Shown: piece after piece, positions 5,790 through 21,410 of the stretch | How the letters are laid out: every line of letters begins with the position of its first letter | Numbering within the stretch: position 1 is the first letter of the stretch | Assembly (NCBI GenBank): GCA_964615975.1 | Contig: CAZTTH010000008.1 | Location: forward strand, 13,814-77,813 | Direction of reading: 5' to 3' | DNA from: an uncultured Lentisphaerales bacterium | Lineage (GTDB): Bacteria > Verrucomicrobiota > Lentisphaeria > JABSQK01 > JAJFLO01 | DNA: 64,000 nt | Translations under genes and position numbers: made by a program | Notes under the pieces: model-generated | What the model was told of the DNA's origin: nothing | Databases searched by the model: none | What the model saw: only the letters and a program-made list of their open reading frames with translations

Positions 5790-7862
5790 TTAAGCTCGTA
5801 AGTCATCCAGGAATTCTGAGGCTGGTTCAATGCCTGTGACCAGTAAATGATCCCTTGCCCGTGTACAAGCGACATAAAGCAAGTGACGTTCAGTGTCGTA
5901 GACCTCTTGCAAATCGGCATCGTCACCGACTGTTTCAATACGTTCCTGTAAGGGGATAATCTCGTCATCACAGGATATCACGGCCACGGCGCGGAATTCA
6001 AGCCCCTTGGCCAGGTGCATGGTGCAGATCGATACATGACCACTGCTCGTCTCGACATGGTCATCGAGGATATTGAATGGCAAACCCGACTCCTTGACTG
6101 CATCTTGAGCTCGTTCCAGTTGCCCTGGTGAACGCACGAAGACGCCGAATTCATGGGGTAGGAGACCGGCTTTCGTGAGCTCGGCAATCCATGTACCAAC
6201 AGAACTTATTTCGTCATTTTCACTCTTGAACACGCGAATGTCGGGTAATGGACCATTGAAGATCGAAATTGTATCGCTCCGATCTTCTCGATTGCCGTCC
6301 ACATCAGTAACTTCCGGACCAAGCAGACGATCAGCTTGCTGGCGGATTTGATGGGATGTGCGATAATTGATTCGCAGCGTGCGGGAACGACCGCGGATAT
6401 CAACACCGAGTGATTTCCAGGAGAAGGGTTGTTGGAAAATACGCTGACCAAGATCACCGGCAAAGAATAAAGCGTTGGAGCGCTCACCACCAAGCACGGC
6501 AAGGAAGCGGAGTTGTGAAACACTGAGATCCTGTGCCTCGTCAACAACTACAAAATCGAAGGGTAGCTTTTTGCTTTCCACCAATGTGGACGACAAGGCA
6601 GTGAAAATCCCCGCATGAGTGGATAACTTCCGCTCTTTCAATCCACTGCTGACCTGCTCAAAGATAGACCAGAGTACCACTCGTCGCTTTTCGGGCAGCC
6701 GGGTTTTGCGGCCAAGGCGGGCTACATCGCGGTAAGACTCCCATGTTTCCAATTGCCACGCATCGACGACTTGTTCCCATTCGGTAACCAGGAAATGCAG
6801 ACTGAACTTGTGATCTCCCACCACTTTCGCCGCGACATTGAGCAATTCCCGCACGATATCACGAGTGGCCAGGTTCACCTTGCCACATTGTGATTTAAAG
6901 AGTCGGAGACCGATGGCATTCAGGGAGTAAACTTCAATGCGTTCGACAAGACGCGGTTCGTTGCCGACCAATCGTTTTAGCTTGGTACGAAGCGCATTTG
7001 CCAGCGTGTCGGAAAAGGTTGTGAGCAGGATGCGGGCATCGGGATAGGCGCGGGCCAGATACACTGCCCGATGCAACGCCACAATCGTCTTTCCGGTTCC
7101 AGCCGATCCTGAAACACGGGATGGTCCATTTTGGTCGCGTTCCACCCATTGACGCTGTTCGGGATGGAGAAAAACAGTCCACTTCTCCCAGGGGAAATCG
7201 AGAGCACATTGAAGCTCTTCGATATTGTTCATCACCCGGAAGCGGCGTTGCGCATCGGGGTGATCAAACGGACTTGCAATCGGCATGGCCGGTTGAATCA
7301 CTCGCGGTTTGCCACCGGTGGCAAGTTCCAGGAGCGCTTCAGCCGCTTCCCCGGGCAGACGTTCCGCTAACAATAACAGGCTGTCTTCATTAACCTGGCG
7401 CACATCATTCAACCATTCTGCCGGCACGCCATAGCCAAGCAGTTCTTCATCGGAATTGGCGGTAAACAGGGGTGGTTTCGGTAGCGCCGGCAATTCCTGT
7501 TGCACATACACTGGTACATAGACCTCCTTCACCGTCTCGCGAATTTCCACGAGCTGAGCCGCCCCCGTCTTGGGATGCGTTTCCAGTTTCCGGCGTTGCG
7601 CCCAATTATAGGCTTTATCGTGGTGATCGACATAACAGAGCATCAAACTGGTACCGGTTTTGTGAACGATGAGCCGAATATCACTGGTTGCTCGAATCGA
7701 CCAGAAGTTGGCATCTTTGGCGCCCTCAATACGATGGCATTGCATCCCGGGATTGAGGGGATTCATCTGCAGGTCAAATGCCGTTGTCTTGACCGCTTTC
7801 TGCTCATCGCCGGTCAGGCGTGCAAGGCTATCGGTGAAGGTGGCGGCAATGCGGAAGTTCAT
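5790..7862 (-). CDS. UvrD-like SF1 helicase (Walker A GSAGTGKT, DEAQD) with an N-terminal ~90-aa RelE/ParE-like fold
   Basis: Helicase motifs were read from the translation. The N-terminal segment ..ANFWSIRATSDIRLIVHKTG.SLMLCYVDHHDKAY matches the RelE/ParE C-terminal pattern. Confidence 0.75.
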   Translation of the reverse strand: MNFRIAATFTDSLARLTGDEQKAVKTTAFDLQMNPLNPGMQCHRIEGAKDANFWSIRATSDIRLIVHKTGTSLMLCYVDHHDKAYNWAQRRKLETHPKTGAAQLVEIRETVKEVYVPVYVQQELPALPKPPLFTANSDEELLGYGVPAEWLNDVRQVNEDSLLLLAERLPGEAAEALLELATGGKPRVIQPAMPIASPFDHPDAQRRFRVMNNIEELQCALDFPWEKWTVFLHPEQRQWVERDQNGPSRVSGSAGTGKTIVALHRAVYLARAYPDARILLTTFSDTLANALRTKLKRLVGNEPRLVERIEVYSLNAIGLRLFKSQCGKVNLATRDIVRELLNVAAKVVGDHKFSLHFLVTEWEQVVDAWQLETWESYRDVARLGRKTRLPEKRRVVLWSIFEQVSSGLKERKLSTHAGIFTALSSTLVESKKLPFDFVVVDEAQDLSVSQLRFLAVLGGERSNALFFAGDLGQRIFQQPFSWKSLGVDIRGRSRTLRINYRTSHQIRQQADRLLGPEVTDVDGNREDRSDTISIFNGPLPDIRVFKSENDEISSVGTWIAELTKAGLLPHEFGVFVRSPGQLERAQDAVKESGLPFNILDDHVETSSGHVSICTMHLAKGLEFRAVAVISCDDEIIPLQERIETVGDDADLQEVYDTERHLLYVACTRARDHLLVTGIEPASEFLDDLRA
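7767..7862. repeat. Direct repeat copy 1: start codon plus first 32 codons of the helicase gene
   Basis: Matches 10030-10125 with 12 mismatches in 96 nt by hand alignment. Confidence 0.7.
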
Positions 7863-7932: not shown

Positions 7933-8361
7933 TCATTTAGCATAATGGCATTCCATAACAGTATCGGCGATCAGTTGTGCTATAGTCAGATTATCTTGAT
8001 GAGAAATCCCATGAATTCCGCTATGAGACGGATCATTGTCTTCAGGTTCATGAATGAACTGCAACTGACGCGAATCATTCGATTCATTTTTTACAAAATT
8101 CCTGGTGTTTCCAACATTCACCACTGCAAACATACCCGTTGATGCCACATTGAATTTTTTAGCAAAAATTCGTCTTACTTCTTCAATTTCTTGAACACGA
8201 GAAGTTTTCTTGAGATATTCCAGCCAATTCACGGACAGATAAGTTTCATCATCTCGAAGCATGAATGAGGCACCGGTTGGTAGTCCAGTGGAAGGTGAAA
8301 GACTCCGAGGTTTACAATATCTTGAAACGTGATCGGAATCCTGGATAATGTCATTTCTCAT
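7933..8361 (-). CDS. Hypothetical protein, 142 aa (cassette gene C)
   Basis: ATG start. It overlaps the upstream gene by 11 nt. No recognisable domain. Confidence 0.5.
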   Translation of the reverse strand: MRNDIIQDSDHVSRYCKPRSLSPSTGLPTGASFMLRDDETYLSVNWLEYLKKTSRVQEIEEVRRIFAKKFNVASTGMFAVVNVGNTRNFVKNESNDSRQLQFIHEPEDNDPSHSGIHGISHQDNLTIAQLIADTVMECHYAK

Positions 8362-9067
8362 TGATCGTCGTCCATCGTTCTGTATTGAAGGGCGTTATGA
8401 GTTGACGAAAATCTTTCATGCCACATTTTCCTGAATTCCTAATTATTCCGTCCTGAGACGGAGAAAATATCAAATAATTAAGGTTATAATCCGAAAGAAA
8501 CTCAATGGTCAGATTTCGGGATTTATCTTTGCGCCATTGACAGATAATTGTCCCATTAGGGGATGCCATAATGTCAGGATGACAAAGGTCTTTATTCTGG
8601 GATAAAAATCGCAAGCAAGCGCCGACAGATGTTGCACTTAATTTCGTTTCCTCTAGATCTTCGGCGAGAAGGTCATTCAATTCTGTAATGCGAGCCAGCA
8701 CTTCATCTTTCTTTAACAGTGTTCGGCTTGAAAGGCGAAAGTCTATTAATGTTGCTCGAACTTTGTCATATTCTGACCTTATATCTCCTAAAATAGCCAT
8801 GGAAGTATTTTCCGAGGATTCGATTTCAGCTATGATTGCTTTGTCCTCTGGGCAAACACTCAAATAGATCATGGGTGTAAAATAATTCCGCGGTTTGATA
8901 GATGAGAACGAGGTTTTGGGGTTGAGAGATGATTCCCACTGGGCAAGAATTGAATAATCCGTTTGTCTTCGAGATAACAACAATGATTGTACTTGATATT
9001 CATCTTGATCGAATAGTGCTTCGCGGGTTAAGTCAAAATCATCCTTGTATGCGACTGCGGCAGTCAT
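8351..9067 (-). CDS. Hypothetical protein, 238 aa (cassette gene B)
   Basis: ATG start. It has an ATGA overlap with gene A, which implies translational coupling. No recognisable domain. Confidence 0.55.
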   Translation of the reverse strand: MTAAVAYKDDFDLTREALFDQDEYQVQSLLLSRRQTDYSILAQWESSLNPKTSFSSIKPRNYFTPMIYLSVCPEDKAIIAEIESSENTSMAILGDIRSEYDKVRATLIDFRLSSRTLLKKDEVLARITELNDLLAEDLEETKLSATSVGACLRFLSQNKDLCHPDIMASPNGTIICQWRKDKSRNLTIEFLSDYNLNYLIFSPSQDGIIRNSGKCGMKDFRQLITPFNTERWTTINEK

Positions 9068-9858
9068 TTATCCTTCCTCCCCCAGAATTTTTTTTGGATA
9101 TTAATATCAGTAAAATCGCAAAATCCATAAACAATCCATTCATGCGCCAGGTCAAACCACTCCTCCATACGCTTATAACTGACGTCTCCACCCAAACCTT
9201 TAGCTGATAATTCGAGAATGTAAATAGGACTACCGTCCGTTTGTCTTTGACTAAAGCTCAAGCTTACCGTCAGTCGTCCAAAATCTTCAGGTAATGTAAA
9301 GATACCTCTCCATGCGTTTGATTCTGGTCCCGGCAGGAATCGGTCTTCATTTCGCCAAATCAAATCGGGGGCGAAATTTCCAACTTCTGCCGGCGTTTGC
9401 CATATGTCACCTATAGGTATGTGGTTGATGTAAGACAGTTCGCATTTCTGAATGTTGGGCTTGGGTATTTCTTGTTCGGAGAGAAAGGTACAAAATTCCT
9501 TAAGTTGATTCCAAAATTCGTTAATGACATTGGAATATCGCGGATAGGTTTCGTCACCTGTGATCCGCCGCCAATTAAACACGAAACAATTTCTCTGAAT
9601 TTGGATCAGCGATGTTTGGGTTGAGTTCAATAACCAAACACGCGGCCATGGCAGATCGTTCTCTGGGTCTAATGGTAAAAGTGGTTGTGCATGTTCACAA
9701 TGGGGATATCGCTCCTGAATTCTATCCCAATAACGTCCAATATGAGGAAGTTTGAATCCCGCCAATGATTTAAAATAAACACCAGCCACCACCTCATTGA
9801 TAGGCGGAGTTTCAAAATCCGGTAATTGTGTTTGTATGTCTTTTTTGTTTTTCTTCAT
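9064..9858 (-). CDS. Hypothetical protein, 264 aa (cassette gene A); its N-terminal motif resembles the uncharacterized TIGR04255 family (from memory)
   Basis: ATG preceded by an aaggataaatca SD. N-terminus reads LPDFETPPINEVVAGVYFKSL. Confidence 0.5.
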   Translation of the reverse strand: MKKNKKDIQTQLPDFETPPINEVVAGVYFKSLAGFKLPHIGRYWDRIQERYPHCEHAQPLLPLDPENDLPWPRVWLLNSTQTSLIQIQRNCFVFNWRRITGDETYPRYSNVINEFWNQLKEFCTFLSEQEIPKPNIQKCELSYINHIPIGDIWQTPAEVGNFAPDLIWRNEDRFLPGPESNAWRGIFTLPEDFGRLTVSLSFSQRQTDGSPIYILELSAKGLGGDVSYKRMEEWFDLAHEWIVYGFCDFTDINIQKKFWGRKDK

Positions 9859-9971
9859 TGATTTATCCTTATGTTTTTGGGTCTAACCAATTTCATATAT
9901 AACATTAACAAAATTAAGATAGACAATTCAATCCGTCTGAGGTCTGTATTTTACCCACACTGACCAAAATC

Positions 9972-10125
9972 ACCTGTCCTTTGCCCTGTCGAGTTTATAG
10001 AAGATCAGTGCCAATCTTGCCAGGTTAACCTGCAAATCAAATGCTGTCGTCTGAACTGCTTTCTGCTCATCGCCAGTCAGGCGTGCAAGGCTATCGGTGA
10101 AGGTGGCGGCGATACGGAATTCCAT
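9972..10125 (-). pseudogene. Relic 5' fragment of a helicase homolog (ATG + 32 conserved codons, then divergent, stop after 50 codons)
   Basis: Translation MEFRIAATFTDSLARLTGDEQKAVQTTAFDLQ then VNLARLALIFYKLDRAKDR*. It differs from the intact helicase N-terminus at only 2 of 32 residues. Confidence 0.55.
10030..10125. repeat. Direct repeat copy 2 of the helicase 5' end
   Basis: See 7767-7862. Confidence 0.7.
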
Positions 10126-10242: not shown

Positions 10243-11898
10243 CTAAATAAGATGCCATTTCGGGTATTTTCGCGATCCTTCATTCCGGATTAAGTCCTCC
10301 CTTGCCATCGACTGAATCAGGTTAGTTACTTTGTTACGTTTCCGATCATCATCCAGGACATCAGATAATTTGCTGAATAAGAGCTTATCGATATCCTGGC
10401 GTGTGGCATGGCCATACTTCCGAATGAATTCCAGAATCATCTGCTTGTAATGTGCATCGTCGAAAGCGCGGTTTTTTATATACTGTGCTTTATCTCCAGT
10501 GGCCGAGGCGATATGCGCTGCCACGTATAGATTGGGATAACGGCCTTCAATAAGTTTATCATTTCGTAGCATATTCGCTTCATCTTTGGATACTGCTTGT
10601 CGTTTCTGAATTCGGTCTAATAAAATCACTTTGCTCAGCGGCAAATCTTTCTGATCCATAAGCATGACGGTGTAATTAGGGTCAATCACCTGGCCATGTA
10701 TGGTTACGATTACTTTACCCGGTGTCGATAGATTGAAATCGGGTAACGGATAAAATCGCTTGCGTTGCTCCTGGAACATCCGTCGAATGCCATATCCCAT
10801 GGTATCGATCATATTCACATTCACCATGGCGTCTGCGAGAAAACGATTACGATAGCGCTCTGGGGTCTTTTCCCGCAACGTATAATCCTCAAGCCCACCT
10901 TCGAAAAAATCTCCCGCACTCTCAAATACCAAACGATCAGGTCGCTCCGCGACAATTATCCGCGCTTGCTGGCGGTAATCCTGATGGGCAATCGCATTAT
11001 GCATTGCTTCCAGTACCACCCATTTTTCATACTTGGGGACTTCAAATGGAACCAGTTGACCGGGGACATCAAGCTTTTGCATGGTATTACGAATCCGGGC
11101 ATAACATTCACTGGTAGTCAGGAGAAATGGCGGACTGAAGTGTTCGTATGCCTGTTCCGTTCCTTCCAGTTTCCAGGTGATTTGCGCTACTGCCGGTTCC
11201 AGATGATAAGCCGCTTCTTCTCGCCCCAGCAACAGCAGACATGCACGGGTAATCGCGCCGTTCTTTGTCAATTTGGCTTTATCCAGCAATGTCGTATTCG
11301 ACCATGAATCAATCTCTCCGGCAAAGTACTTGTTTCGATTTTTATCACGAAAGTTCCGCCGAGCCGCCACGATTGCCTCCGAATTCAAGTCGTCAATAGT
11401 GGCTTGTGAACAGATTTCTGCTGACCAATCATCAAGCACTGCTTGTGACCGAATCTGCTCCAACTCATGAAGACTTAAGGCGACCAGCGACTCCCCATCG
11501 CGACCATACCAATGCCCTTTGAAGGAGACCGGCAACCCGGGCGGCGCCGCGGGAACCTGAAACATAATGACCCGGCCAGCGGCATGATACGCAATGTGAA
11601 TATCGATAAAACTCATGCGATTGGTTTGATTGGCAATTTCATGTTTAAGGCTATTCAAATAGTCTGCTTTGTCGCGATAACGACTCCCACAAATGCTCCG
11701 ATCATCATTGGCGATGCCGAACACCAGCCAGCCACAGGGTTGATGCTTGAGGTTTGCTTCATTCGCCAACGCTGAAAAATATTGCCCCAGTTTATCGAAG
11801 GAGAAATCATTTTTCGCTTCTTTGAACTCCACCCATTCCGTTTCATGGGGAAGCTGTCGTAGTTCATCAAGTTTATCAAGTAATTGCTGATTCGTCAT
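10243..11898 (-). CDS. AlbA_2 (Schlafen-like) DNA-binding + HATPase_c_4 ATP-binding protein of the RM-associated 'RecG-like C-terminal' type
   Basis: 551 aa with a typical N-terminus (LPHETEWVEFKEAK). Its ATG overlaps the mod stop as ATGA. Confidence 0.6.
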   Translation of the reverse strand: MTNQQLLDKLDELRQLPHETEWVEFKEAKNDFSFDKLGQYFSALANEANLKHQPCGWLVFGIANDDRSICGSRYRDKADYLNSLKHEIANQTNRMSFIDIHIAYHAAGRVIMFQVPAAPPGLPVSFKGHWYGRDGESLVALSLHELEQIRSQAVLDDWSAEICSQATIDDLNSEAIVAARRNFRDKNRNKYFAGEIDSWSNTTLLDKAKLTKNGAITRACLLLLGREEAAYHLEPAVAQITWKLEGTEQAYEHFSPPFLLTTSECYARIRNTMQKLDVPGQLVPFEVPKYEKWVVLEAMHNAIAHQDYRQQARIIVAERPDRLVFESAGDFFEGGLEDYTLREKTPERYRNRFLADAMVNVNMIDTMGYGIRRMFQEQRKRFYPLPDFNLSTPGKVIVTIHGQVIDPNYTVMLMDQKDLPLSKVILLDRIQKRQAVSKDEANMLRNDKLIEGRYPNLYVAAHIASATGDKAQYIKNRAFDDAHYKQMILEFIRKYGHATRQDIDKLLFSKLSDVLDDDRKRNKVTNLIQSMAREDLIRNEGSRKYPKWHLI

Positions 11899-14800
11899 GG
11901 GTTCACCCGGAATACCTTCATTACCTCGTCTCCAAGATGGTTGATTACTTTGATGGCGATGCGGCCGGACTTCGGCTTCTCGAATGGGCGGGAGGTGTCA
12001 CTGTTCAGAGTGGCCCAGGCGTCGGCGTTGATCTCGGCTTTGAGAGTGGTCTTGAGGGCGCTGTAGGGATCGTTGGCGCCAAGGAAATATGCATGGCGGA
12101 CAAAGAAGCTTTCTTCATTGTAATCGGTGTCGATGAACCAGCAGGCAATGCCATCGGTATTGCAGCTTTCTACTTCACCGGTTTGGGGTTTGAAGACATC
12201 CACTCCATTTACAGTGACCTGGAAATAGTGGCGAGTGGTCAGGGGAGAGTGGATAGCGATTTGATCAATGCGTTTAGCATTTTGTTGATCTTGGCACAAT
12301 TGTTCAATAAGTTTTCGCAGTCCTTCCTGGAAAGAAGTTCCAGCCTTTCGGACAAGATCAGAAAGGTTTCCAACTCCGCCAGCGATCCCCGCGCAATGCC
12401 AAGCGATTGTAGAAACTCCCCCGTGCTCCTGCGGGCCTGCCCTTCGGCGATGTTTGCCGGGACGGAGGTCACTGCCCGTCGCATTTGTGATGTAATCCCA
12501 TATCTCTCGGCGGCAGGAAAGCTGCGCGTAATCGCGTAGGTCTGCACCGCCAAGTCGATTGATTTCTGCCAGACTATTAACTCCCGATATGAGCTTATAG
12601 ATTTCATAAGGTGCTATTCTCCTTTCTGAACTATCCACTAACCACTCTTCACTTGCCACTTCAATATCAGGTTCCCCGAATATCACAAACAAGTTGCCTT
12701 TGCCGGTGTTCTTGAGATCTTCAGCCATGTGGAGGTCGGCGTTCATGCGGGCTTTGAGCACTGGGATGCGGCCCAGCTTCTTGAATTCGGTGGTGTGCGC
12801 TTCGTAGTTAAAAGCGCAGACGATCAAGACATCAAACCCGGCATCGCCGGCTTCGCGGGCGGCGGCGACGAGATCGGCGCGCTGGACGGTGCCGAACTCG
12901 GGGCCGATGAAGATTCCAGCACGGATTTCCGTGCCGGAATCAGTGGATAGTGAGGAGTGGTTAATGGCATATTTTTCTTGTTGATCACCCTTCACTAACC
13001 ACTCACCACTTGCTTCAAACCGCCCTTCGGCGCAGACCAATTCGCCCGGCCAGGGAACCAACGAGGTGAAAGTGATCCGATCCTCCTTGTGCGCCTGCTG
13101 CACCCCTGCGGTCTTGAGGTTTTCCAGAACCATCTGGGGGAATGACTGCTTTCCATATTCGACACCGCCTTCCAACATGGTGTCGATCAATTCGTCGTCC
13201 TCGTCGACCCCGAGCACACGATGAGGTGAAAGACTCTCCACGGTGAAGGGACCGGCGACGCGGACTGTCTTCTTGTCCTCATAGGGTTTGTCGTAGAGAT
13301 ATTCGACATCAGCCTTGGCGGAAATCGACGCATCAATTTCCTTTTGGCGGGCAATTCGTTTGTGCCACCAGTCGGAATGCAGCTTCAGAATGTGGGACAG
13401 ACATTCTTGTCTGTCTTTAGGGGGGAGTTTGGCGGTGGAAGAAGCAGACAGGAATGTCTGCTCCACACTGGCAGATTCGCGCGGAATTTCCCATTCTTCC
13501 CATTTCATATTAAGCGCGGTATTGAGCTCTGCTCGAAGAAATTCCAGCTCTGGTTGGAATTTCTCCCAGATAACATCGATCTCGGCGTTGTTGGCGATGG
13601 ACTTGAGCGTGATGTGTGGCACACGTTCATAGACGAAGCCGTGGCGGATGTTCCCCTGCACCGGTTGCGAACTTGGGGCGGTGCGAGTGACTTCGGCTTC
13701 CTTGAGCTGACCTTCAATGGAATCGACTAGTAGGTAAAAGGGATACCGTGCGCCCATGATGCGAGCACGGGCCAATGCCAGCGCCACGCGTGAGGTGTCG
13801 ATCGTGATCCAACGGCGCCCCCATTGCTCGGCGACGGTGGCGGTGGTACCAGAACCGCAGGTCGGGTCAAGTACGAGGTCACCGGGATCGGTGGCCAAGA
13901 GAAGGCATCGTTTTATTGCTTCTGTAGCAGTCTGAACGACAAAAATCTTTGGATCTGCACGGCTTTGAATGCCCCCGATATCATCCCAGACGTTTGAAAG
14001 TGTATGAACGGGAAAATCTTCAATGTAGCGAACGTAATTTAATATCTGCTTGCTCGGAGAAATACGATTTGCCAATTCGAGTCTGGCCATGCCATTGGGT
14101 GTTGTCTTCCAACTGCCTTGGTGTTCGCAGTTTCGTAGTGTCACTAACACTACTGGGTTTGCTTCTGACGTTGTCTTGTCGAGACGGAAAATTCGTGACG
14201 CGGGCGGGAAGGCATCAGGGAATTTTTCACTCGCTTGTTTTAGTGTAATTCTTGTTCCATCTGGTAGTTCGACTCCGTTGTATTTTGTGCCGCCATGTTC
14301 TCCTGGTCTCTTCTCGGCGTACAGATGCCGTGCTTTCGCATGGGTCTTATGCTTTGCGAACCAGAGAATGAAATCGCATTTGTTATTCACGAAGTCTTGA
14401 ACAAGACCTCCTGTCTTTACGAATGTGATTTGGCTGACACAATTCTCTTCTCCGAAGACCTCATCCATCACTGCCCGGACACGGTGAACATTTTCATCGC
14501 CGATCTGGACGAAGATGGAGCCGGAATCTGTTAACAAGTCACGGGCCACTGTCAACCGGTCCCGCAGGTAGGTAAGGTAGCTATGGATGCCTTCGCGCCA
14601 GGTATCGCGAAAGGCTTTAACTTGTTCGGGTTCACGTGTAATATGATCAACCTTGCCGTCCTTCACATCACGGCTGGTGGTGGACCACTGGAAATTGCTA
14701 TTGAACTTGATGCCATAAGGCGGATCGATATAGATGCACTGCACCTTGCCGCGCAACCCCTCGCGCTCGGCCAGGCTGGCCATGACCTGGAGGGAGTCGC

Positions 14801-15215
14801 CGAGGATCATGCGGTTGGACCAATTCTGATCGTGTTGATAGAACTCAGTCTTGTCCACGCCCTGAGGAATGCCATTAAAATCCGCGAATAAGTCTGGCTG
14901 CCACGATTCGGTGGAGTGATTAGTGGATAGTGAAGAGTGGCGCAGTAGATCGTCAATCAATACCTTGGGGTGAATTTTCTCCTGAATGTATAACGGCGGG
15001 GCATGGACAACGAGATCGCTCCAGTCCTGTTCATCCTTGCCGCGCCAAACGAGTTGGGGATCGAGATCGGTGTTGCGGGGATAACGCACCTGCTTGGGGT
15101 TCTGCTGCTCCTTCTCCAGCACCGACTGGTATTCGGCGGTGGGAATGTTCTTGCGCGTCGCGTCGTCGTGCTTGAGTGTTTCGACTGTCTTGGTTTTATT
15201 GTTTGCATTGGCCAT
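11895..15215 (-). CDS. mod: Type III-like N6-adenine DNA methyltransferase (Mod), long form (~1100 aa); ORF stays open across a nested four-helix-bundle gene
   Basis: Motif IV DPPYG precedes motif I DPTCGSGTT (beta-class order). The C-terminus ..GRIAIKVINHLGDEVMKVFRVNP matches the family. I prefer the ATG at 15215 (MANANNK) over the track's TTG at 15230. Confidence 0.7.
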   Translation of the reverse strand: MANANNKTKTVETLKHDDATRKNIPTAEYQSVLEKEQQNPKQVRYPRNTDLDPQLVWRGKDEQDWSDLVVHAPPLYIQEKIHPKVLIDDLLRHSSLSTNHSTESWQPDLFADFNGIPQGVDKTEFYQHDQNWSNRMILGDSLQVMASLAEREGLRGKVQCIYIDPPYGIKFNSNFQWSTTSRDVKDGKVDHITREPEQVKAFRDTWREGIHSYLTYLRDRLTVARDLLTDSGSIFVQIGDENVHRVRAVMDEVFGEENCVSQITFVKTGGLVQDFVNNKCDFILWFAKHKTHAKARHLYAEKRPGEHGGTKYNGVELPDGTRITLKQASEKFPDAFPPASRIFRLDKTTSEANPVVLVTLRNCEHQGSWKTTPNGMARLELANRISPSKQILNYVRYIEDFPVHTLSNVWDDIGGIQSRADPKIFVVQTATEAIKRCLLLATDPGDLVLDPTCGSGTTATVAEQWGRRWITIDTSRVALALARARIMGARYPFYLLVDSIEGQLKEAEVTRTAPSSQPVQGNIRHGFVYERVPHITLKSIANNAEIDVIWEKFQPELEFLRAELNTALNMKWEEWEIPRESASVEQTFLSASSTAKLPPKDRQECLSHILKLHSDWWHKRIARQKEIDASISAKADVEYLYDKPYEDKKTVRVAGPFTVESLSPHRVLGVDEDDELIDTMLEGGVEYGKQSFPQMVLENLKTAGVQQAHKEDRITFTSLVPWPGELVCAEGRFEASGEWLVKGDQQEKYAINHSSLSTDSGTEIRAGIFIGPEFGTVQRADLVAAAREAGDAGFDVLIVCAFNYEAHTTEFKKLGRIPVLKARMNADLHMAEDLKNTGKGNLFVIFGEPDIEVASEEWLVDSSERRIAPYEIYKLISGVNSLAEINRLGGADLRDYAQLSCRREIWDYITNATGSDLRPGKHRRRAGPQEHGGVSTIAWHCAGIAGGVGNLSDLVRKAGTSFQEGLRKLIEQLCQDQQNAKRIDQIAIHSPLTTRHYFQVTVNGVDVFKPQTGEVESCNTDGIACWFIDTDYNEESFFVRHAYFLGANDPYSALKTTLKAEINADAWATLNSDTSRPFEKPKSGRIAIKVINHLGDEVMKVFRVNP
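12239..12607 (-). CDS. Four-helix-bundle protein (TIGR02436 / '23S rRNA intervening-sequence protein' family), nested inside the mod ORF in a different frame
   Basis: ELIVWQKSIDLA..FP..ERYGITSQMRRAVTSVPANIAEGQARRSTGEFLQSLGIARGSLAELETFLILS.. is an unmistakable family signature. It has its own SD (aaaggag). Confidence 0.75.
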   Translation of the reverse strand: MKSISSYRELIVWQKSIDLAVQTYAITRSFPAAERYGITSQMRRAVTSVPANIAEGQARRSTGEFLQSLGIARGSLAELETFLILSERLELLSRKDCENLLNNCAKINKMLNALIKSLSTLP

Positions 15216-15376
15216 GTTATTAAATCCCAAAATCAGGTTGTTGTCTACATTTATTCGGCCCGCTAATCACGCAAAACACACGAATGTTCAGTTCTCAGTT
15301 AAGAATGAAGGCTGATTTGCTTGGATTGAATATTCGTGTCGTTCGTCTGATTCGTGGTTAAATTTGAACGGTGGTG

Positions 15377-15436
15377 AACGGAGGGCGGGTTTTCCAACCC
15401 GCCAAACAAGGCGGACAGGAATGTCCGCCCTCCGTT
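15377..15436 (-). promoter_or_regulatory. Structured element between the RHH gene and mod with mutually exclusive hairpins
   Basis: aacggagggcgg...ccgccctccgtt (12-bp inverted repeat) encloses the ggcgggtt-ttcc-aacccgcc and ggcggaca-ggaa-tgtccgcc stem-loops. On the mRNA strand the second loop is followed by TTGTTT. Confidence 0.35.
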
Positions 15437-15473
15437 ATCCTCAAAATCGATACCTGAGTTGTTACAATATATT

Positions 15474-15707
15474 TTATATTTTGCCATCGCGTTTCAATTC
15501 GATAATCATGTCCTCAAACGAAACTAATGGTTCATCCGCGCGCATATCGAAGGCGGCTAAATCCTCTGTATCCTCCGCCAGCGACAATATTACCGCTTCA
15601 TTAACGAGGTCGGACATCGATCTTGATGTATCAATGGACTTTTGCTGTAATGCTTTATGAATATCCGGTTTTAGGTAAATAGTGGAACGTTTTGATAATA
15701 CTGTCAT
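15474..15707 (-). CDS. Ribbon-helix-helix (CopG/antitoxin-like) DNA-binding protein, 77 aa
   Basis: TIYLKPDIHKALQQKSIDTSRSMSDLVNEAV is an RHH-like beta-alpha-alpha N-terminus. No adjacent toxin ORF. Confidence 0.45.
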   Translation of the reverse strand: MTVLSKRSTIYLKPDIHKALQQKSIDTSRSMSDLVNEAVILSLAEDTEDLAAFDMRADEPLVSFEDMIIELKRDGKI

Positions 15708-15777
15708 ATGATAACCTCCATGATTTTATTGATTGAACAATTATAACGTTACATTACCAATCGTGGAATGAAAAATT

Positions 15778-16350
15778 TCAAACTGCCAATCGGTCAGTGA
15801 CTACATCATCGATCATCTTGTTGAACTCGGCTTCAACCTTTTTAGTAAAATCCGCCTCGATCTGATAAACCATGCGTTCGCTCGCCCGGATTTCGCAGAC
15901 CTCTTCAAGCAGTTCCTCGAAGTATCGCCGGTCGAAACGAGTGCCGTGTTTAAAGCGGTCGGAATCGATAGCGAAACCTTTGAGGATGTAGTCCTTTAAC
16001 CGATCGGTAGCCCAGGTACGAAATTGGGTCGCTCGCACGCTTTTGACGCGATACCCAACAGCTATGATCGCTTCGAGGCTGTAAAGCTTCGTACGATACT
16101 GCTTGCCATCAGCGGCAGTTACCGAGGATTCCTCGGTAACTGCTGATTCGATTAGTTCTTGATCGGCGAAAATATTCTTTAAATGCAAGGAGATATTGTC
16201 GGTGGAACACTCATAAAGTTCGGCTATGAGTTTCTGGGTGAGCCAAACATTTTCGTTCTCGAAGCGAACTTCAACGCGAGCCCGCCCATCTTCACTTGCG
16301 AAGATGGTGATATTGTCGATGCGTATAGGTTGCGAATTTTTAGACATCAT
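15778..16350 (-). CDS. RhuM-family virulence-associated protein
   Basis: NISLHLKNIF..YSLEAIIAVGYRVKSVRATQFRTWAT block. Overlaps the fic stop by 1 nt. Confidence 0.6.
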   Translation of the reverse strand: MMSKNSQPIRIDNITIFASEDGRARVEVRFENENVWLTQKLIAELYECSTDNISLHLKNIFADQELIESAVTEESSVTAADGKQYRTKLYSLEAIIAVGYRVKSVRATQFRTWATDRLKDYILKGFAIDSDRFKHGTRFDRRYFEELLEEVCEIRASERMVYQIEADFTKKVEAEFNKMIDDVVTDRLAV

Positions 16351-17435
16351 TAACTTCCTTCCTGCATGGATTCTCTGGTCAAAATAGCATTCAAGGCGGT
16401 GTTAATGTAGTAATTAGTCCGCCCTATTTTTTGTTTTTTAAGGAAGCCGCCGCCGGTCAACGCATCGAGATATTTGGTGGCGGTGAGGCGCGACACCTTC
16501 AGATCACGTTCGACGAATTCGATCTTGGTATAGGGGTGGGTAAACAGGTTATTGATCAGATCCTGACTGTAAAACTTGTACTCCGCGCGAATACGGTGCT
16601 TCGCATCCATCAACGCCGCATTAATGGCATGGATGGTTTCGATGGCATCACCGGCGGTTGATTCAATGGCGGTAAGCAGGTAAAGCACCCACTCTTCCCA
16701 TGCATCGTTTTCGCGAACACTCTGAAGCAGTCGATAATAATCCGGTTTGGTGCGGACGATGTGGCGGCTGAGATATAGCACCGGGATATCGAGCAGACCT
16801 TCCTTCACCAAGTAAAGCACATTAACGATGCGGCCGGTGCGGCCATTGCCATCATAGAACGGGTGGATACTTTCAAACTGGTGATGGATCAACGCCATTT
16901 TAATGAGCGGGTCAGCGGCAAATAAATCACGATCATTGATGAAACGCTCAAGATCGCGCATGAGCGCGATAATGGTATCTGGATCTTGCGGCGGCATATA
17001 GATCGCCTGACCAGAGCCATCTTTCAACACAGTCCCTGGCAGTTTGCGGAAACCGGCGTTGTTTTGCTCCAGCTCTACCTGAATCTGAATGATATGGTTG
17101 ATGGTAAGCAGACCACTTTGTTGCACTAGATCGAATCCAACCCGTAAAGCCTGGCGATACCGTAGTACCTCCTTGGCGGCGCCATGGTGCAAGTTCTCGG
17201 GAAAAAGGTCATCTTTATATAATTCGTCATGAGTGGTCACGATGTTTTCTATGGCCGAACTATCCTTGGCCTCCTGTATTCCCAGAGTGTTGATGAGTAT
17301 CCCCTGGTTAGGAATGGAGGCGGCGACTCCCTTGAGTTCAGCTAGTTTACGACTTGTTAAAGCCAATTTTTTAAGGATAACGGGAGTATCGAATCTTATC
17401 GACGGCAAACGATCTAATGGCAGAATGGTGGTCAT
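16350..17435 (-). CDS. Fic/Doc family protein (AMPylation-type; motif HPFYDGNGRTGR) with a C-terminal wHTH-like region
   Basis: Canonical Fic motif HPFxDGNGRxxR was read in the translation. Confidence 0.85.
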   Translation of the reverse strand: MTTILPLDRLPSIRFDTPVILKKLALTSRKLAELKGVAASIPNQGILINTLGIQEAKDSSAIENIVTTHDELYKDDLFPENLHHGAAKEVLRYRQALRVGFDLVQQSGLLTINHIIQIQVELEQNNAGFRKLPGTVLKDGSGQAIYMPPQDPDTIIALMRDLERFINDRDLFAADPLIKMALIHHQFESIHPFYDGNGRTGRIVNVLYLVKEGLLDIPVLYLSRHIVRTKPDYYRLLQSVRENDAWEEWVLYLLTAIESTAGDAIETIHAINAALMDAKHRIRAEYKFYSQDLINNLFTHPYTKIEFVERDLKVSRLTATKYLDALTGGGFLKKQKIGRTNYYINTALNAILTRESMQEGS

Positions 17436-17537
17436 GTTATCCCCTTAACCCCTTGTCGATATGTATATAAAAATAGCGTTTTCTATACATATGGCGCACA
17501 ATGTGTATAGGATATGGCAAGATTGTATACGGATTAT

Positions 17538-20500
17538 TCATAATGATGCCGGCCGCGGGTGTATTATCATGCTTAACATCCGATCAAATTCAAATTTAAC
17601 CTTCTTGGAAAAATCTGCCTCAATCTGATAAACATCATTGAACTCGGCGAATGCCCAGCGGCCAAACGTGCCCAGGTTGTTCACACCGGGTACCCAGTAG
17701 GTTTCGATGGCGGACTTCTTATCCTTGGCATCCTCGCGGCGGTAGCCTTTGATCTCAACAATCAGATGGAGGAGATCGTCGGGCCCGTGGCCGTCATCCA
17801 CGCGCACGATAAAGTCCGGCAGATACTTGCGGATTTCAGAACCATGGCGATAGGGCACTTCGAGGCCGAGGTTGTGATTTTTGACGTAGGCATGAACTTT
17901 AGGGTGCGACTCGGCGACCCGGCAGAACTCGGCTTCCCAATCGCTGTCGAGGATAACCCAGTTGATATGGCAACTCTTGGAACTGGTTTCCCAGCGGTCA
18001 CGGCGCGAGGTGTTAAAGCGAACATGGGCCGTGGAGCCCGTGGGATTATAAGGGTCGAGCAGGGCTTTGATGGGACGTTCTCCGACGAAGGCGCGGGTAA
18101 TACCGGCAGTAATGCGTTCGCAAGCTATATCAGCGAGCATTTTGTATTTTAACTGCGCGGGGTAAGTTCTACCCTTGCAAATCAAGCAAGTGTCCAGCCA
18201 ATGCTTGGCAATCCGTTTCAATTGTCCGAAAAGATTAAAATGGGCAGACTGCCCCGGGTCACGCCAATGATTCAGAACGAGATGGGAAGTCAATTCAAAA
18301 AGAATTTGTGATGGACGCACCTCTCTAGTATGATCGAGAGTCAGGTCGACAGTTTGTCCAATTATTCCAGACTGACGAGTCGTTGTTGCACCAACCAACT
18401 CCGGGGTAAGCTCAAGAATCGAGTCTTGGTCAAATTGGGCAATTAGACGATCATCGGGCAATTCAACACGATAGCCTGCCACACGGGGGAAAATTATCTC
18501 CAGATGATTTCTCTCTGGGCTAATGGCTTTCACTCGGACGGTTTGCGGGGGTGGTTGTGGGGGAGAGATTACGGGCTGGGCTGTAAAGTTAAAGGGAATG
18601 CCAATAATATCAGCATATTCTACATTGAACAATCCTTTATCCGATCCTTCCTCATTTAGCCAATAGGACCATCGCCTCAGAGCTCGGCCGATGACCTGTT
18701 CACATAGTAGCTGAGTACCAAAAGCCCGAACTCCAAGTACATGAGTGACAGTGTTGGCATCCCAGCCCTCGGTAAGCATGGAAACTGAAACAACACAACG
18801 AATGTCACTACCAAGTGTCCCAGGTTTGCCCACAGTGTTCATAACTTCCCGCAATAGGGTTGTATCGTCGAAATCTTTTCCTTCCCTCAATTGCTCCGCC
18901 AAGGGGCCGCCTCTTTCCATAACTTGACTCTTGAACTGAGTAATTTCAGGGGCTGCAACTGCTCGGAAGTTATCATCGAAACCTTCCCCCGATTCCAATT
19001 GAGCGCTGTCGATGAGCAATGTGTATGGGCGAGTTAATGGGTTGCCGTGCTCGTCATGATTTCGGAATAGTTCGAGACGTCCACCCACAGGCTTGAAGCT
19101 TCCATCCTCCTGCAGTTGATCAAAGCCAGAAATGAAATCGTAGATTAGCTTCGAAACGGCCGTGTTCTGACAAACAATGATAAAGCATGGCGGAACCGGG
19201 ATCCCTCTTTCTCGCCAACACTGAAAAGTTTTGGAATAGTGGCCATAGAGTGCTTCGAGTGCGGTTTGAAGTAAGGGGGGCAGGCTCAAAGGGTCAAGTC
19301 TAGACTGACCGCGCTTTTTCTTTGGCATTTTCGAGCGCACGTTCTCCCACAGATTTCTGAATAACGGAACGTCAGCTCCGGGTATGTTGTCCGAGACTGG
19401 AACCCGAGGCAATTTCACGATTCCGCACTCAATTGCGTCCATGAGTGAAAAATCGCTCATCGTCCAGTGGAACATCGTACCTTCTCGATATCCAGAGCCA
19501 CGGAGAAAGAAAGGTGTTGCAGAAAGATCGATTACACGAAGAAGACCGATTTTGCGATTCACTTTCTCAAGTCCCGAAATCCAAAGTCGTGCCGCCTTGT
19601 TGTTCTCCGCAGCTTCTTCCCTGGCTTCTCTCAGTGCGTTGCCAGAAAGAGGATTACCTTCTGAATCAGTGAACTGACTGTCGTCTGCAGGTTTCTCACG
19701 ATAACAGTGATGTGCCTCGTCATTTATAACAAGGATATTTTTCATGCCCATGAGTTCGGGCATGACACGTTGAATCATCTGGCCTTCGGTCTCAAGTGTT
19801 AGCGGATCATCACCGGTTCGGCCCTTGAGGAGTTGACGGTTGCCTTTTGAAAGATTGGTGCGCTCCCGGAGTTTGAAGGCATGGTAGTTGGTGATGACAA
19901 TCTTGGCCTTCTTGAGATCGTCGAGCATATCATGCGGCACGAGTTCGCGGCTAGCATAATAGCTGTCAGGATCGTGGGGTTGGAGGACGCGCAGACGATC
20001 CTTGATGGTCAGACCGGGGGCGACGATGAGGAACCCACGGCTGAAATATTTGCTGCCAGGGCGGCGGACAGCATTGATGGTTTGCCAGGCGATAAGCATG
20101 GCCATAACGGTGGTCTTGCCAGCGCCGGTGGCCAGTTTCAGGGCGAAGCGCATGAGTTCAGGATTGGCATCCTGATTAGCGCTTGCCAGGTAATCGAGCA
20201 ATTGTTTACTGCTCTTATAAAAGGGAGCGACTTCGGTCAGCCAGATGGCGGTTTCGACCGCTTCAATCTGACAGAAGAACGGGCGGAAGTCGCCGAATTT
20301 ATGGTGACGCCAGTGCTGCAGCAGGCGGGTTGTCTCGGGGCTAACCTGCCATTGGCCGGGATTGGACAACGCCCGCCAGGCATTCACATGGCGGCGAACT
20401 TCATTGATGTTGGACGTAGGATCGTATTGCTGATCCTTGGTCGAAAGCCCCTGGCCTTCGTCGAATACGAATTCTTCCTGAGCGGCGGATTGCTTCCGCT

Positions 20501-20654
20501 TCTTCGGTTTGGGAATAGGAGTGATAAACTCAGCCCGGCGACGACTCAGCATGATCCGCTGTGTCGGTTGTCCAGATTTATCCAATTCCCAGTGTCGACT
20601 TGGACACTCATAAGGCGAGTTGAGGATGGGGTGGTCGAAGAAGGGATTGGACAT
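17538..20654 (-). CDS. res: Type III-like restriction enzyme Res subunit (SF2 helicase with DEAH box, C-terminal PD-(D/E)xK-like nuclease region)
   Basis: Walker A GAGKT and VINDEAHH are present. The C-terminus carries DFIVRVDD...EIKGY. The last ~20 aa (VYQIEADFSKKVKFEFDRM) copy a segment of the RhuM C-terminus. Confidence 0.7.
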   Translation of the reverse strand: MSNPFFDHPILNSPYECPSRHWELDKSGQPTQRIMLSRRRAEFITPIPKPKKRKQSAAQEEFVFDEGQGLSTKDQQYDPTSNINEVRRHVNAWRALSNPGQWQVSPETTRLLQHWRHHKFGDFRPFFCQIEAVETAIWLTEVAPFYKSSKQLLDYLASANQDANPELMRFALKLATGAGKTTVMAMLIAWQTINAVRRPGSKYFSRGFLIVAPGLTIKDRLRVLQPHDPDSYYASRELVPHDMLDDLKKAKIVITNYHAFKLRERTNLSKGNRQLLKGRTGDDPLTLETEGQMIQRVMPELMGMKNILVINDEAHHCYREKPADDSQFTDSEGNPLSGNALREAREEAAENNKAARLWISGLEKVNRKIGLLRVIDLSATPFFLRGSGYREGTMFHWTMSDFSLMDAIECGIVKLPRVPVSDNIPGADVPLFRNLWENVRSKMPKKKRGQSRLDPLSLPPLLQTALEALYGHYSKTFQCWRERGIPVPPCFIIVCQNTAVSKLIYDFISGFDQLQEDGSFKPVGGRLELFRNHDEHGNPLTRPYTLLIDSAQLESGEGFDDNFRAVAAPEITQFKSQVMERGGPLAEQLREGKDFDDTTLLREVMNTVGKPGTLGSDIRCVVSVSMLTEGWDANTVTHVLGVRAFGTQLLCEQVIGRALRRWSYWLNEEGSDKGLFNVEYADIIGIPFNFTAQPVISPPQPPPQTVRVKAISPERNHLEIIFPRVAGYRVELPDDRLIAQFDQDSILELTPELVGATTTRQSGIIGQTVDLTLDHTREVRPSQILFELTSHLVLNHWRDPGQSAHFNLFGQLKRIAKHWLDTCLICKGRTYPAQLKYKMLADIACERITAGITRAFVGERPIKALLDPYNPTGSTAHVRFNTSRRDRWETSSKSCHINWVILDSDWEAEFCRVAESHPKVHAYVKNHNLGLEVPYRHGSEIRKYLPDFIVRVDDGHGPDDLLHLIVEIKGYRREDAKDKKSAIETYWVPGVNNLGTFGRWAFAEFNDVYQIEADFSKKVKFEFDRMLSMIIHPRPASL

Positions 20655-20949: not shown

Positions 20950-21410
20950 AAATTCATCGGCGGGTGTAAGCCGGATTCTGTCCTCTGGTGGTAACGCCGT
21001 GTTGATCATGACGGTTAAGCCATGAATCAACGCGGCTCCCAGAGTAACGACCATTTATCTGCGCGGTCTACCCGGAACTTATATCTTGCGAAACGGCACG
21101 GGCCGCGCCTTGTTCCCTATTTGACCTTGCTCCAGGATGGGTTTACCCTGCGATTCGGCTTGCGCCGGAATCCGGTGGGCTCTTACCCCACCATTTCACC
21201 CTTACCCCATCTTCACCGCCGGCAGGATGGTTCGCATCCCGCCGGCGGTGAAGATGAGGCGGTATATTTTCTGTGGCACTTTCCTGACCGAGGCGTCTGG
21301 TCCTCGATATCCGGGATTGCTCCCGGATTCCTCGCCCTGTGGAGTCCGGACTTTCCTCCATTTCAGGTGATGATCCTGAAACAGCGACCGTTCCCCGCCG
21401 ATGAAATTTG
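20950..21410 (-). ncRNA. rnpB: RNase P RNA, bacterial type A
   Basis: Minus strand reads GGAGGAAAGTCCGGACTCC, ..AGGAAAGTGCCACAGAAAATATACCGCC.., GGTAAGGGTGAAATGGTGGGGTAAGAGCCCACC and ..GACAGAATCCGGCTTACACCCGCC. The P1 pairing is ttcatcggcggg / cccgccgatgaa. Ends are approximate. Confidence 0.8.

Follow-up and report, generated by a model that had tools for sequence, protein, structure and literature searches.

A truncated rhuM gene fused to a res tail in the res-mod junction of a Type III-like restriction-modification locus

Genes of the locus and a direct repeat at two gene ends

The DNA analysed here is a stretch of 64,000 nucleotides (nt) from an uncultured Lentisphaerales bacterium (contig CAZTTH010000008.1), called the window throughout, and it contains a Type III-like restriction-modification (R-M) locus of the BPTD_3080 family. 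Its restriction gene res and its methyltransferase gene mod lie on one strand with 2.3 kb of cargo between them. The gene order, all on the minus strand, is res, a spacer, fic, a 190-aa open reading frame (ORF) that begins as rhuM, an ORF for a ribbon-helix-helix (RHH) protein, a stretch of hairpins, mod, and an AlbA_2/HATPase_c_4 gene (Table 1). The ends of res and of the 190-aa ORF are direct repeats of each other. This is an ordinary recombination scar in a slot for defence genes, unusually legible in that the joint lies within 9-10 nt and both parental families are known.

Table 1. Positions of the features in the window, from upstream of res to downstream of mod.
Feature	Position	Strand	Description
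RNase P RNA (bacterial, class A)	20951-21403		220 bits; ~300 nt upstream of res
res	17538-20654	-	BPTD_3080-family Type III-like restriction endonuclease/helicase, 1038 aa, complete
res tail copy 1, in use	17538-17633	-	VYQIEADFSKKVKFEFDRMLSMIIHPRPASL, then stop; core 17595-17633
res-fic spacer	17436-17537	-	102 nt; own regulatory region of the fic cassette
Operator-like palindrome	17462-17489		TGTATAGAAAA-N6-TTTTTATATACA; 21/22 to clade consensus; sole such site in the window
fic	16350-17435	-	SoFic-type class II Fic AMPylase with a winged helix-turn-helix (wHTH) at its C-terminus, 361 aa, intact
190-aa chimeric rhuM ORF	15778-16350	-	Start ATG overlaps fic stop (TAATG)
RhuM-only portion of the chimeric ORF, residues 1-160	15871-16350	-	N-terminal domain, linker, first helix of C-terminal domain
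Junction microhomology	15862-15870	-	GTT TAT CAG (Val161-Tyr162-Gln163); native to RhuM (..ERMVYQK..) and Res (..DVYQIE..)
Displaced Res tail, residues 164-190 and stop	15778-15861	-	IEADFTKKVEAEFNKMIDDVVTDRLAV, then stop; core 15832-15870
RHH/RelB-like antitoxin ORF	15474-15707	-	77 aa; 3' of the displaced tail
ORF starting MAKYKIY	15299-15487	-	Overlaps RHH stop, then enters nested hairpins 15377-15436 (inverted repeat)
mod	11895-15230	-	Type III-like N6/N4 DNA methyltransferase, 1111 aa, res partner
AlbA_2/HATPase_c_4 gene	10243-11898	-	3' of mod

The res product matches the NCBIfam profile NF046055 with 1319 bits (cutoff 800), residues 6-1018 spanning profile positions 1-969 of 970, and also matches Pfam ResIII. 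The C-terminal endonuclease domain PF19778 scores 21.3 bits, slightly below its gathering threshold of 23.4 bits, and a precomputed match to it is found in many homologs. Among the matches listed, the 119 best-scoring homologs are 72-76% identical to Res and come from many phyla. The Mod protein matches Pfam N6_N4_Mtase and the PADLOC profile MTase_III (1356 bits). The genes res, fic and mod look functionally intact. No sequence relatives of Res or of RhuM were found in the PDB, and no paper mentioning the BPTD_3080 Res family was found in the literature searched.

A repeat search paired the two tail cores of Table 1 as direct repeats of 39 nt, 1,763 nt apart from start to start, with 33 of 39 positions (85%) identical. 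The initial annotation had placed a repeat here and regarded it as a recombination scar bracketing fic and rhuM. The repeat is where it was said to be and does lie in the res C-terminus, although it starts 31 codons before the res stop and not within the last ~20. Aligned codon by codon from GTT (Val), the copies agree at 42 of 57 nt (74%) and at 31 of 36 nt (86%) over the first 12 codons, and a weaker similarity reaches both stop codons. The in-use tail ends ...KKVKFEFDRMLSMIIHPRPASL and the displaced one ...KKVEAEFNKMIDDVVTDRLAV.

The similarity of the repeat is far above chance. The best local alignment of the rhuM tail elsewhere in the window scored 24, compared with 12.3 +/- 1.0 (maximum 16.5) in 100 shuffles, and the blastn comparison that had been proposed as a check, run with the defence island against the window, recovered the pair at E=3e-5. 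A profile built from 117 other Res tails recognised the tail of the rhuM ORF, VYQ included, at E=3.3e-15 (52 bits) and the tail of the window's own res at E=1.7e-9 (34 bits); in a six-frame search of the window with this profile, the next best match had E=0.37.

Origin of the rhuM tail and position of the joint

To which family the repeated sequence belongs is evident from the homologs. Among the best Res homologs listed, 117 of 119 end ...GRWAFAEFTEVYQIEADFKAKVESEFNKMI followed by 5-15 variable residues. The tail pattern of the family can be written as V[YF]QIE.DF..KV..EF..MI, after which a short variable stretch and the stop follow. The sequence joined to rhuM fits this pattern, and its nearest Res tails are those of P0041, L043 and L023. 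The 60 full-length RhuM homologs lack this motif and continue ...VYQKITDIYAT..., that is, ...EIRASERMVYQKITDIYATAADYS... Since the motif is a trait of the Res family and is missing from RhuM, the rhuM tail is res-derived. A convergent or functional motif common to RhuM and Res was considered and rejected, as the RhuM homologs do not carry it. The same comparison disposes of the suggestion that a rhuM-like sequence served to rebuild the C-terminus of res. The initial annotation had also held that a motif general to Res C-termini would speak against a link with rhuM. The motif is indeed general, and it is this generality that marks the rhuM tail as coming from res.

The rhuM part of the ORF is truncated. 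Full-length RhuM has ~332 residues, and its homologs align to the window ORF over residues 1-163 only (~86% of the query). Pfam PF13310 (RhuM) matches the 190-aa ORF with 120.9 bits (gathering threshold 33.7), covering only profile positions 1-97 of 252. The ORF tracks the family to ...RASERMVYQ and then becomes IEADFTKKVEAEFNKMIDDVVTDRLAV, running to what is evidently the native res stop. It departs from RhuM after YQ and thus does not contain the complete domain, which has ~332 residues, the core IRASERxxYQKxxDxY and a C-terminal helical domain. As read from the ORF, only the first 163 of ~332 rhuM codons remain, and the last 27 codons of res (30 with VYQ) follow them in frame.

An AlphaFold model of a full-length RhuM homolog (mean predicted local distance difference test score, pLDDT, 75) has an alpha/beta domain at the N-terminus and an all-helical one at the C-terminus, connected by a disordered linker; it has no significant match among PDB folds. 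According to this model, the cut would fall within the helix that carries the invariant Y152-Q153-K154-D157 and would remove nearly the whole C-terminal domain. Having lost most of the conserved C-terminal domain, the rhuM'::res-tail ORF is probably the dead remnant of a toxin. In loci L081-L087 (the contexts of P0128 and P0129), two ORFs take the place of rhuM, with the break near the conserved IRASER..YQK motif at which the window rhuM is cut. The split is identical across contigs of several samples, and inactivation of rhuM at this point seems frequent. On long contigs, the closest homologs of RhuM stand alone and carry a frameshift, and they adjoin neither fic nor an R-M system.

The joint can be located closely. 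The nine junction bases are identical in the res copy at 17625-17633. Homolog DNA reads ATG-GCG/ATG-TAT-CAG/CAA-AAG-ATC in RhuM and GAT-GTT-TAT-CAG-ATT in Res. With VYQ codons native to RhuM and Res alike, the position of the joint is confined to the 9-10 nt of GTTTATCAG(A), the parental sequences being reconstructed from homologs; a joint there is necessarily in frame. The proposal of a recombination scar thus holds, and the analysis adds to it the truncation of rhuM at codon 163 of ~332, the joint at the VYQ microhomology and the finding that the two copies are diverged alleles.

On the last point, 26% of the 57 nt are different between the copies, with synonymous or conservative sites making up most of the changes, and both fic and the chimeric ORF are still open. 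Third codon positions account for 8 of the 15 nucleotide differences, and of the 10 codons that differ, 5 are synonymous. In the profile comparison above, the unused copy is nearer to the Res family consensus than the used one. The third-position bias, the similarity extending to both stops and the better fit of the unused copy argue for two alleles over decay in place. This is the pattern expected if two already diverged res alleles, each evolved under selection as Res, had been brought together, and not that of a fresh duplication.

The res-mod junction in other genomes and the fic cassette

The scar was then viewed against the res-mod junction of other members of the family. Scanning genomes with Res alignments, one genome per species, gave 80 loci, 69 of which could be scored for both res and mod. 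In all 69, res is followed by mod on the same strand. The gap is 50 bp or less in 24 of them and exceeds 300 bp, and is thus occupied, in 38. Long gaps contain one to three same-strand ORFs, which often begin on the res stop codon. The cargo belongs to the Pfam families Bro-N (8), Fic/SoFic (7), HATPase_c_4 with or without AlbA_2 (4), YhcG/DUF1016 (3), ORF6N (3), GmrSD (3), HepT (2), PIN (2) and the four-helix-bundle 23S rRNA intervening sequence protein (IVP; 2); DUF4411, PDDEXK_3, DUF4062 and a deaminase were also seen. Given this gap distribution and the diversity of same-strand cargo, the res-mod junction of the BPTD_3080-type family is a defence-cargo slot. A very widespread and unstudied R-M family thus has at this junction a hotspot for SoFic, Bro-N, AlbA_2/Schlafen, GmrSD, DUF1016, HepT and PIN genes.

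Remnants of the flanking genes occur at other loci of this kind. Locus L037 (11370-13100) has a 5' stump of mod, internal fragments of res and a res tail between the full res and the full mod, with two toxin-antitoxin pairs interleaved. L001 has a 56-codon stump of the res tail and L026 a 5' stump of res. In the metagenomic fic locus L090 (1150-2820), 5' stumps of mod stand upstream of fic. Of two further metagenomic fic loci, L165 (2680-5860) retains only three fragments of res, followed by two fic genes and a 3' stump of mod, and L095 has a res fragment after fic. Such remnants come from independent assemblies, including long-read chromosomes and isolates. In L007, L028, L139 and L090, a rhuM gene lies downstream of mod.

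The same island holds a second scar, which the initial annotation had also pointed out. The first 32 codons of a UvrD-like helicase gene (5790-7862, minus strand), at 7767-7862, are repeated at 10030-10125 over 96 nt with 87.5% identity, the copy lying within a 51-aa stump ORF (9970-10125). The repeat brackets two inserted ORFs, at 9064-9858 and 8351-9067. The idea that the island diversifies by cassette swapping at gene termini is borne out at the level of the family, by the res and mod remnants at other loci and by the cargo slot. Turnover of cargo at the slot would sometimes proceed through illegitimate, microhomology-mediated joints and not through a clean double crossover. A homolog of the 264-aa inserted ORF occupies the res-mod slot of L074.

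The fic gene was analysed in the same way. Its product matches Pfam Fic_N, Fic and SoFic-like_C above their cutoffs, PADLOC SoFic at 8e-113 and SoFic chains in the PDB at 1e-69 to 1e-76. It carries HPFYDGNGRTGR and the inhibitory SSAIEN, which fit HxFx(D/E)GNGRxxR and (S/T)xxxE(G/N), respectively. Its score against NCBIfam NF046030 is 342 bits, below the equivalog cutoff of 550, and by these matches the protein is classed as a relative of SoFic and not as an equivalog. A metagenome scan with Fic gave 80 loci at 67-86% identity, and a protein search gave relatives of up to 89%. The closest relatives with known context (L170, L171, L168 and L088; 84-89%) have the arrangement res-103 nt-fic-1 nt-mod; most fic loci of distant relatives lie outside this R-M system. 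The window fic has the canonical boundary on its left, while on its right it meets the rhuM'::res-tip block in place of mod. Fic and RhuM had been taken for a travelling pair. This view is not sustained, as rhuM adjoins fic in none of ~90 related fic loci. The junction of the fic stop and the rhuM' start (window 16348-16355) reads TAATGATG, and rhuM' starts with Met-Met where its homologs have a single Met. The closest fic loci read TAGCATG there, with the mod start, and the extra ATG may be a relic of the mod start codon.

The spacer upstream of fic contains four TATACA/TGTATA boxes at -94, -74, -54 and -32 from the fic ATG, and the 103-nt spacers of the closest relatives contain the same units. 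An inverted repeat in this spacer had been put forward as a candidate operator, and comparison with related genes strengthens the case. The unit of the clade, derived from 78 loci, is TGTATAGAAAA-N5-6-TTTTCTATACA and often occurs twice, ~41 nt apart. A match of at least 18/22 was found within 140 nt upstream of 64 of 78 related fic genes and in 0 of 323 control segments. According to one preprint, SoFic as a dimer binds to its own promoter, less than 100 bp from the start codon and at a sequence left undefined there, and CccR, a wHTH Fic protein, is reported to be an autoregulator (bioRxiv 10.64898/2026.07.09.737422). The conserved unit upstream of fic agrees with this promoter binding, and the palindrome is a probable autoregulatory site of SoFic. 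The survey thereby provides a concrete, testable candidate operator sequence for a large SoFic clade. Three operator units are present in L092 (3500-5000). One lies upstream of fic, and the other two precede a DinD/Bro-N-like pseudogene that shares the res-mod slot, an arrangement suggesting that neighbouring cargo can come under the control of the element or of SoFic itself.

Beyond the displaced tail, the RHH ORF has weak matches only (NCBIfam RelB-like, 0.0056; Pfam RH3, 0.0077) and is preceded by its own TATAAT box and a GGAGG ribosome-binding site. It is probably older cargo of the slot. No family match was found for the ORF at 15299-15487, which may be a truncated RelE/ParE toxin; with the RHH ORF it would possibly form a toxin-antitoxin pair with a cut toxin, an assignment that is uncertain. 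About 240 nt with nested hairpins separate the RHH ORF from mod. Scans for sigma-70 promoters and terminators over 15100-17700 gave fewer sites than in shuffled sequence.

Within mod, residues ~862-1003 (window 12221-12660) are an insertion missing from most homologs. It coincides with a complete ORF (12239-12607) for a four-helix-bundle "23S rRNA intervening sequence protein", which uses another frame of the same strand and is flanked by 30-nt inverted repeats (12227-12256 and 12631-12660), and the mod frame is open across all 142 codons. Such a nested ORF within an open mod also occurs in L028, and degraded forms in L055, L029 and L070. On the other side of the locus, the RNase P RNA gene forms one border of the defence island.

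Recombination routes and relation to known systems

Any history of the locus must put the end of a second res allele beside rhuM and join the two at VYQ. The route that we favour, and regard as rather likely, is homology-facilitated illegitimate recombination (HFIR) leading to a "C-terminal displacement". Incoming linear DNA would have carried the 3' region of a related res followed by cargo, and would have paired by homology with the resident res on its left side. Its right end, inside rhuM, would then have been joined by microhomology to the resident res tail. The incoming DNA would thus have provided the res 3' end now in use, and the resident tail, with the older cargo behind it (the RHH antitoxin and the probable toxin stump), would have been shifted downstream. 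In this direction of the event, we infer the displaced tail to be the resident one. This corresponds to the first alternative of the initial annotation, which the analysis supports, a cargo module that arrived beside a replacement res 3' end and left the other res 3' end downstream. The fic gene would have brought along its own promoter/operator of ~100 nt, whether in this event or in another one like it. Since its closest relatives abut mod directly, two successive events, rhuM first and then fic, are as likely as one.

HFIR is favoured by the diverged copies, by the second anchored-looking scar in the island, by the mirror-image mod stumps elsewhere and by the absence of tandem res pairs. 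Three features looked for in an HFIR scar were found: two ends of the anchor gene flank the acquired DNA, the copies are diverged, and the joint lies at a microhomology.

Several results weigh against this route. The donor arrangement, res-fic-rhuM or res-rhuM with a full-length rhuM, was not found among ~170 loci (the 80 genome loci, 80 fic loci from metagenomes and the contexts of the three closest fic genes). Given the context of the closest Fic relatives, the adjacency of fic and rhuM' needs either an unseen donor or a second event. Exact-sequence look-ups with Res, RhuM' and an AlaRS-like protein of the window gave no match in the contig index, and with it no sister genome without the insertion. 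Identity along Res in sliding windows of 80 aa over 199 Res sequences gave a mosaic of nearest neighbours with no crossover point, and fic-linked res genes were not enriched among the nearest neighbours toward the res 3' end. Neither tail of the window is specifically related to fic-linked Res tails, which rank mid-field for both, and GC content and skew mark no boundary. A likeness by eye of SMIIHPRPASL and SAHLPVEAVA, which had suggested that the current tail travels with fic, was dropped in view of this mid-field ranking.

A deletion within a tandem array would produce exactly the observed product through the same VYQ microhomology, and we consider it possible, if rather unlikely. Here the ancestor would have been res1-fic-rhuM(full)-(mod1) followed by res2-RHH/toxin-mod2, and a deletion from rhuM codon 163 to res2 codon 1010 would have removed the 3' half of rhuM, any mod1 and nearly all of res2. 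Microhomology deletions are the commonest type of illegitimate event, and L037, with its remnants between a full res and a full mod, resembles a collapsed tandem. Against this, two complete res genes side by side were found at none of the 80 genome loci, the helicase 5'-end scar would need a separate tandem array of another gene, and a res-fic-rhuM unit that has not been seen is still required.

The direct repeats bracketing inserted genes have the classical look of a target duplication, so that the res 3' end might have been duplicated in situ when the cargo was inserted, by a long target duplication or replication slippage, and have diverged in place. The divergence of 26% over 57 nt, with fic and rhuM' still open, makes this improbable. 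Unselected decay should also have left the opposite of what is seen, namely no third-position bias and an unused copy farther from the Res consensus, and the block has no transposase, integrase or terminal inverted repeats at its borders.

Selection of the chimera as a functional fusion, in which the RhuM N-terminal domain with a Res C-terminal helix would serve, for example, in docking to Res/Mod or as a regulator or antitoxin of SoFic, is judged very improbable. The chimera is a singleton cluster, with no other fusion of RhuM to a Res tail among 7,760 RhuM matches or ~170 loci and no other fic locus with rhuM downstream, and the cut removes most of the region of the conserved RhuM core motif. 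These points outweigh the facts that the ORF is unbroken, keeps the frame and is coupled to fic in translation (TAATG), that PADLOC includes short profiles of the RhuM N-terminus only (174-214 positions), and that a small downstream antitoxin, AS1, has been reported for an E. coli SoFic (PMC12249575).

An assembly artefact joining contigs of two strains (res-fic-rhuM from one, res-RHH-mod from the other) is the least credible explanation: the window proteins are singletons from one NCBI contig and many related records are metagenome-assembled genomes, but the joint shares only 9-10 nt (11 nt between the window copies), much less than the k-mers that assemblers use, the fusion keeps the frame and ends at the native res stop, and the comparable remnants described above come from independent assemblies.

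To return to HFIR, a wider reading is that the res 3' end and the mod 5' end of BPTD_3080-type systems are standing recombination anchors, at which one-sided entry pushes older cargo and gene tips downstream. We put this forward tentatively and think it rather unlikely. The window may then preserve a readable stratigraphy, with fic first, then rhuM' with the old res tip, then the RHH ORF with the toxin stump. If this reading were true, duplicated tips would permit precise loss of cargo with regeneration of an intact res, and the displacement mode of Rhs, contact-dependent inhibition (CDI) and type VI secretion system (T6SS) toxin loci would extend to restriction systems.

In Rhs, CDI and T6SS effector loci, C-terminal displacement leaves orphan modules, and HFIR has been proposed as the route (Jackson 2009; Poole 2011; Kirchberger 2017, PMC5361080). 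The present locus resembles them in that the conserved body of an upstream gene would be the anchor, the incoming DNA would give a new 3' end with linked genes, and the old 3' tip with its linked gene, shifted downstream, would persist as remnants. Unlike in those loci, the anchor is a restriction endonuclease and not a polymorphic toxin, and its tip has no known role in specificity. The displaced tip also measures only 27-30 codons and, instead of standing alone, is joined to a truncated cargo gene, and one layer is clear here, with perhaps three in all.

HFIR itself, as cited in PMC5361080 and PMC3240628 (de Vries & Wackernagel 2002; Prudhomme 2002; Meier & Wackernagel 2003), combines one homologous anchor with one illegitimate joint at a short microhomology, foreign DNA being trapped between the two. 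The window would fit this with its joint of 9-10 nt, although HFIR was defined experimentally and is read here from the end product.

Toxin-like genes such as Fic/Doc, RhuM and PrrC embedded in R-M operons have been described (Anantharaman 2013, PMC3710099). As in those multi-layer defence loci, Fic/Doc and RhuM genes here form part of an R-M operon, share its strand and are tightly coupled. Those cases are mostly of Type I/PrrC, whereas the present one lies between res and mod of the BPTD_3080 Type III-like family, with rhuM as a truncated remnant.

SoFic is a recognised anti-phage defence protein (PMC12249575), for which phage protection and AMPylation of EF-Tu are experimental properties (PMC12249575; bioRxiv 10.64898/2026.07.09.737422). 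The window protein shares its domain architecture and intact catalytic and inhibitory motifs, and the palindrome lies within 100 nt upstream of the start of its gene, the range in which SoFic was shown to bind. It differs in that its clade falls below the NCBIfam equivalog cutoff (342 against 550 bits) and in that the palindrome is a prediction derived here from the 78 loci. HFIR, C-terminal displacement, Fic/Doc and RhuM in R-M operons and defence by SoFic are thus established, and what is new is the particular slot, in a Res family absent from the literature searched, together with the clean microhomology joint and the operator consensus.

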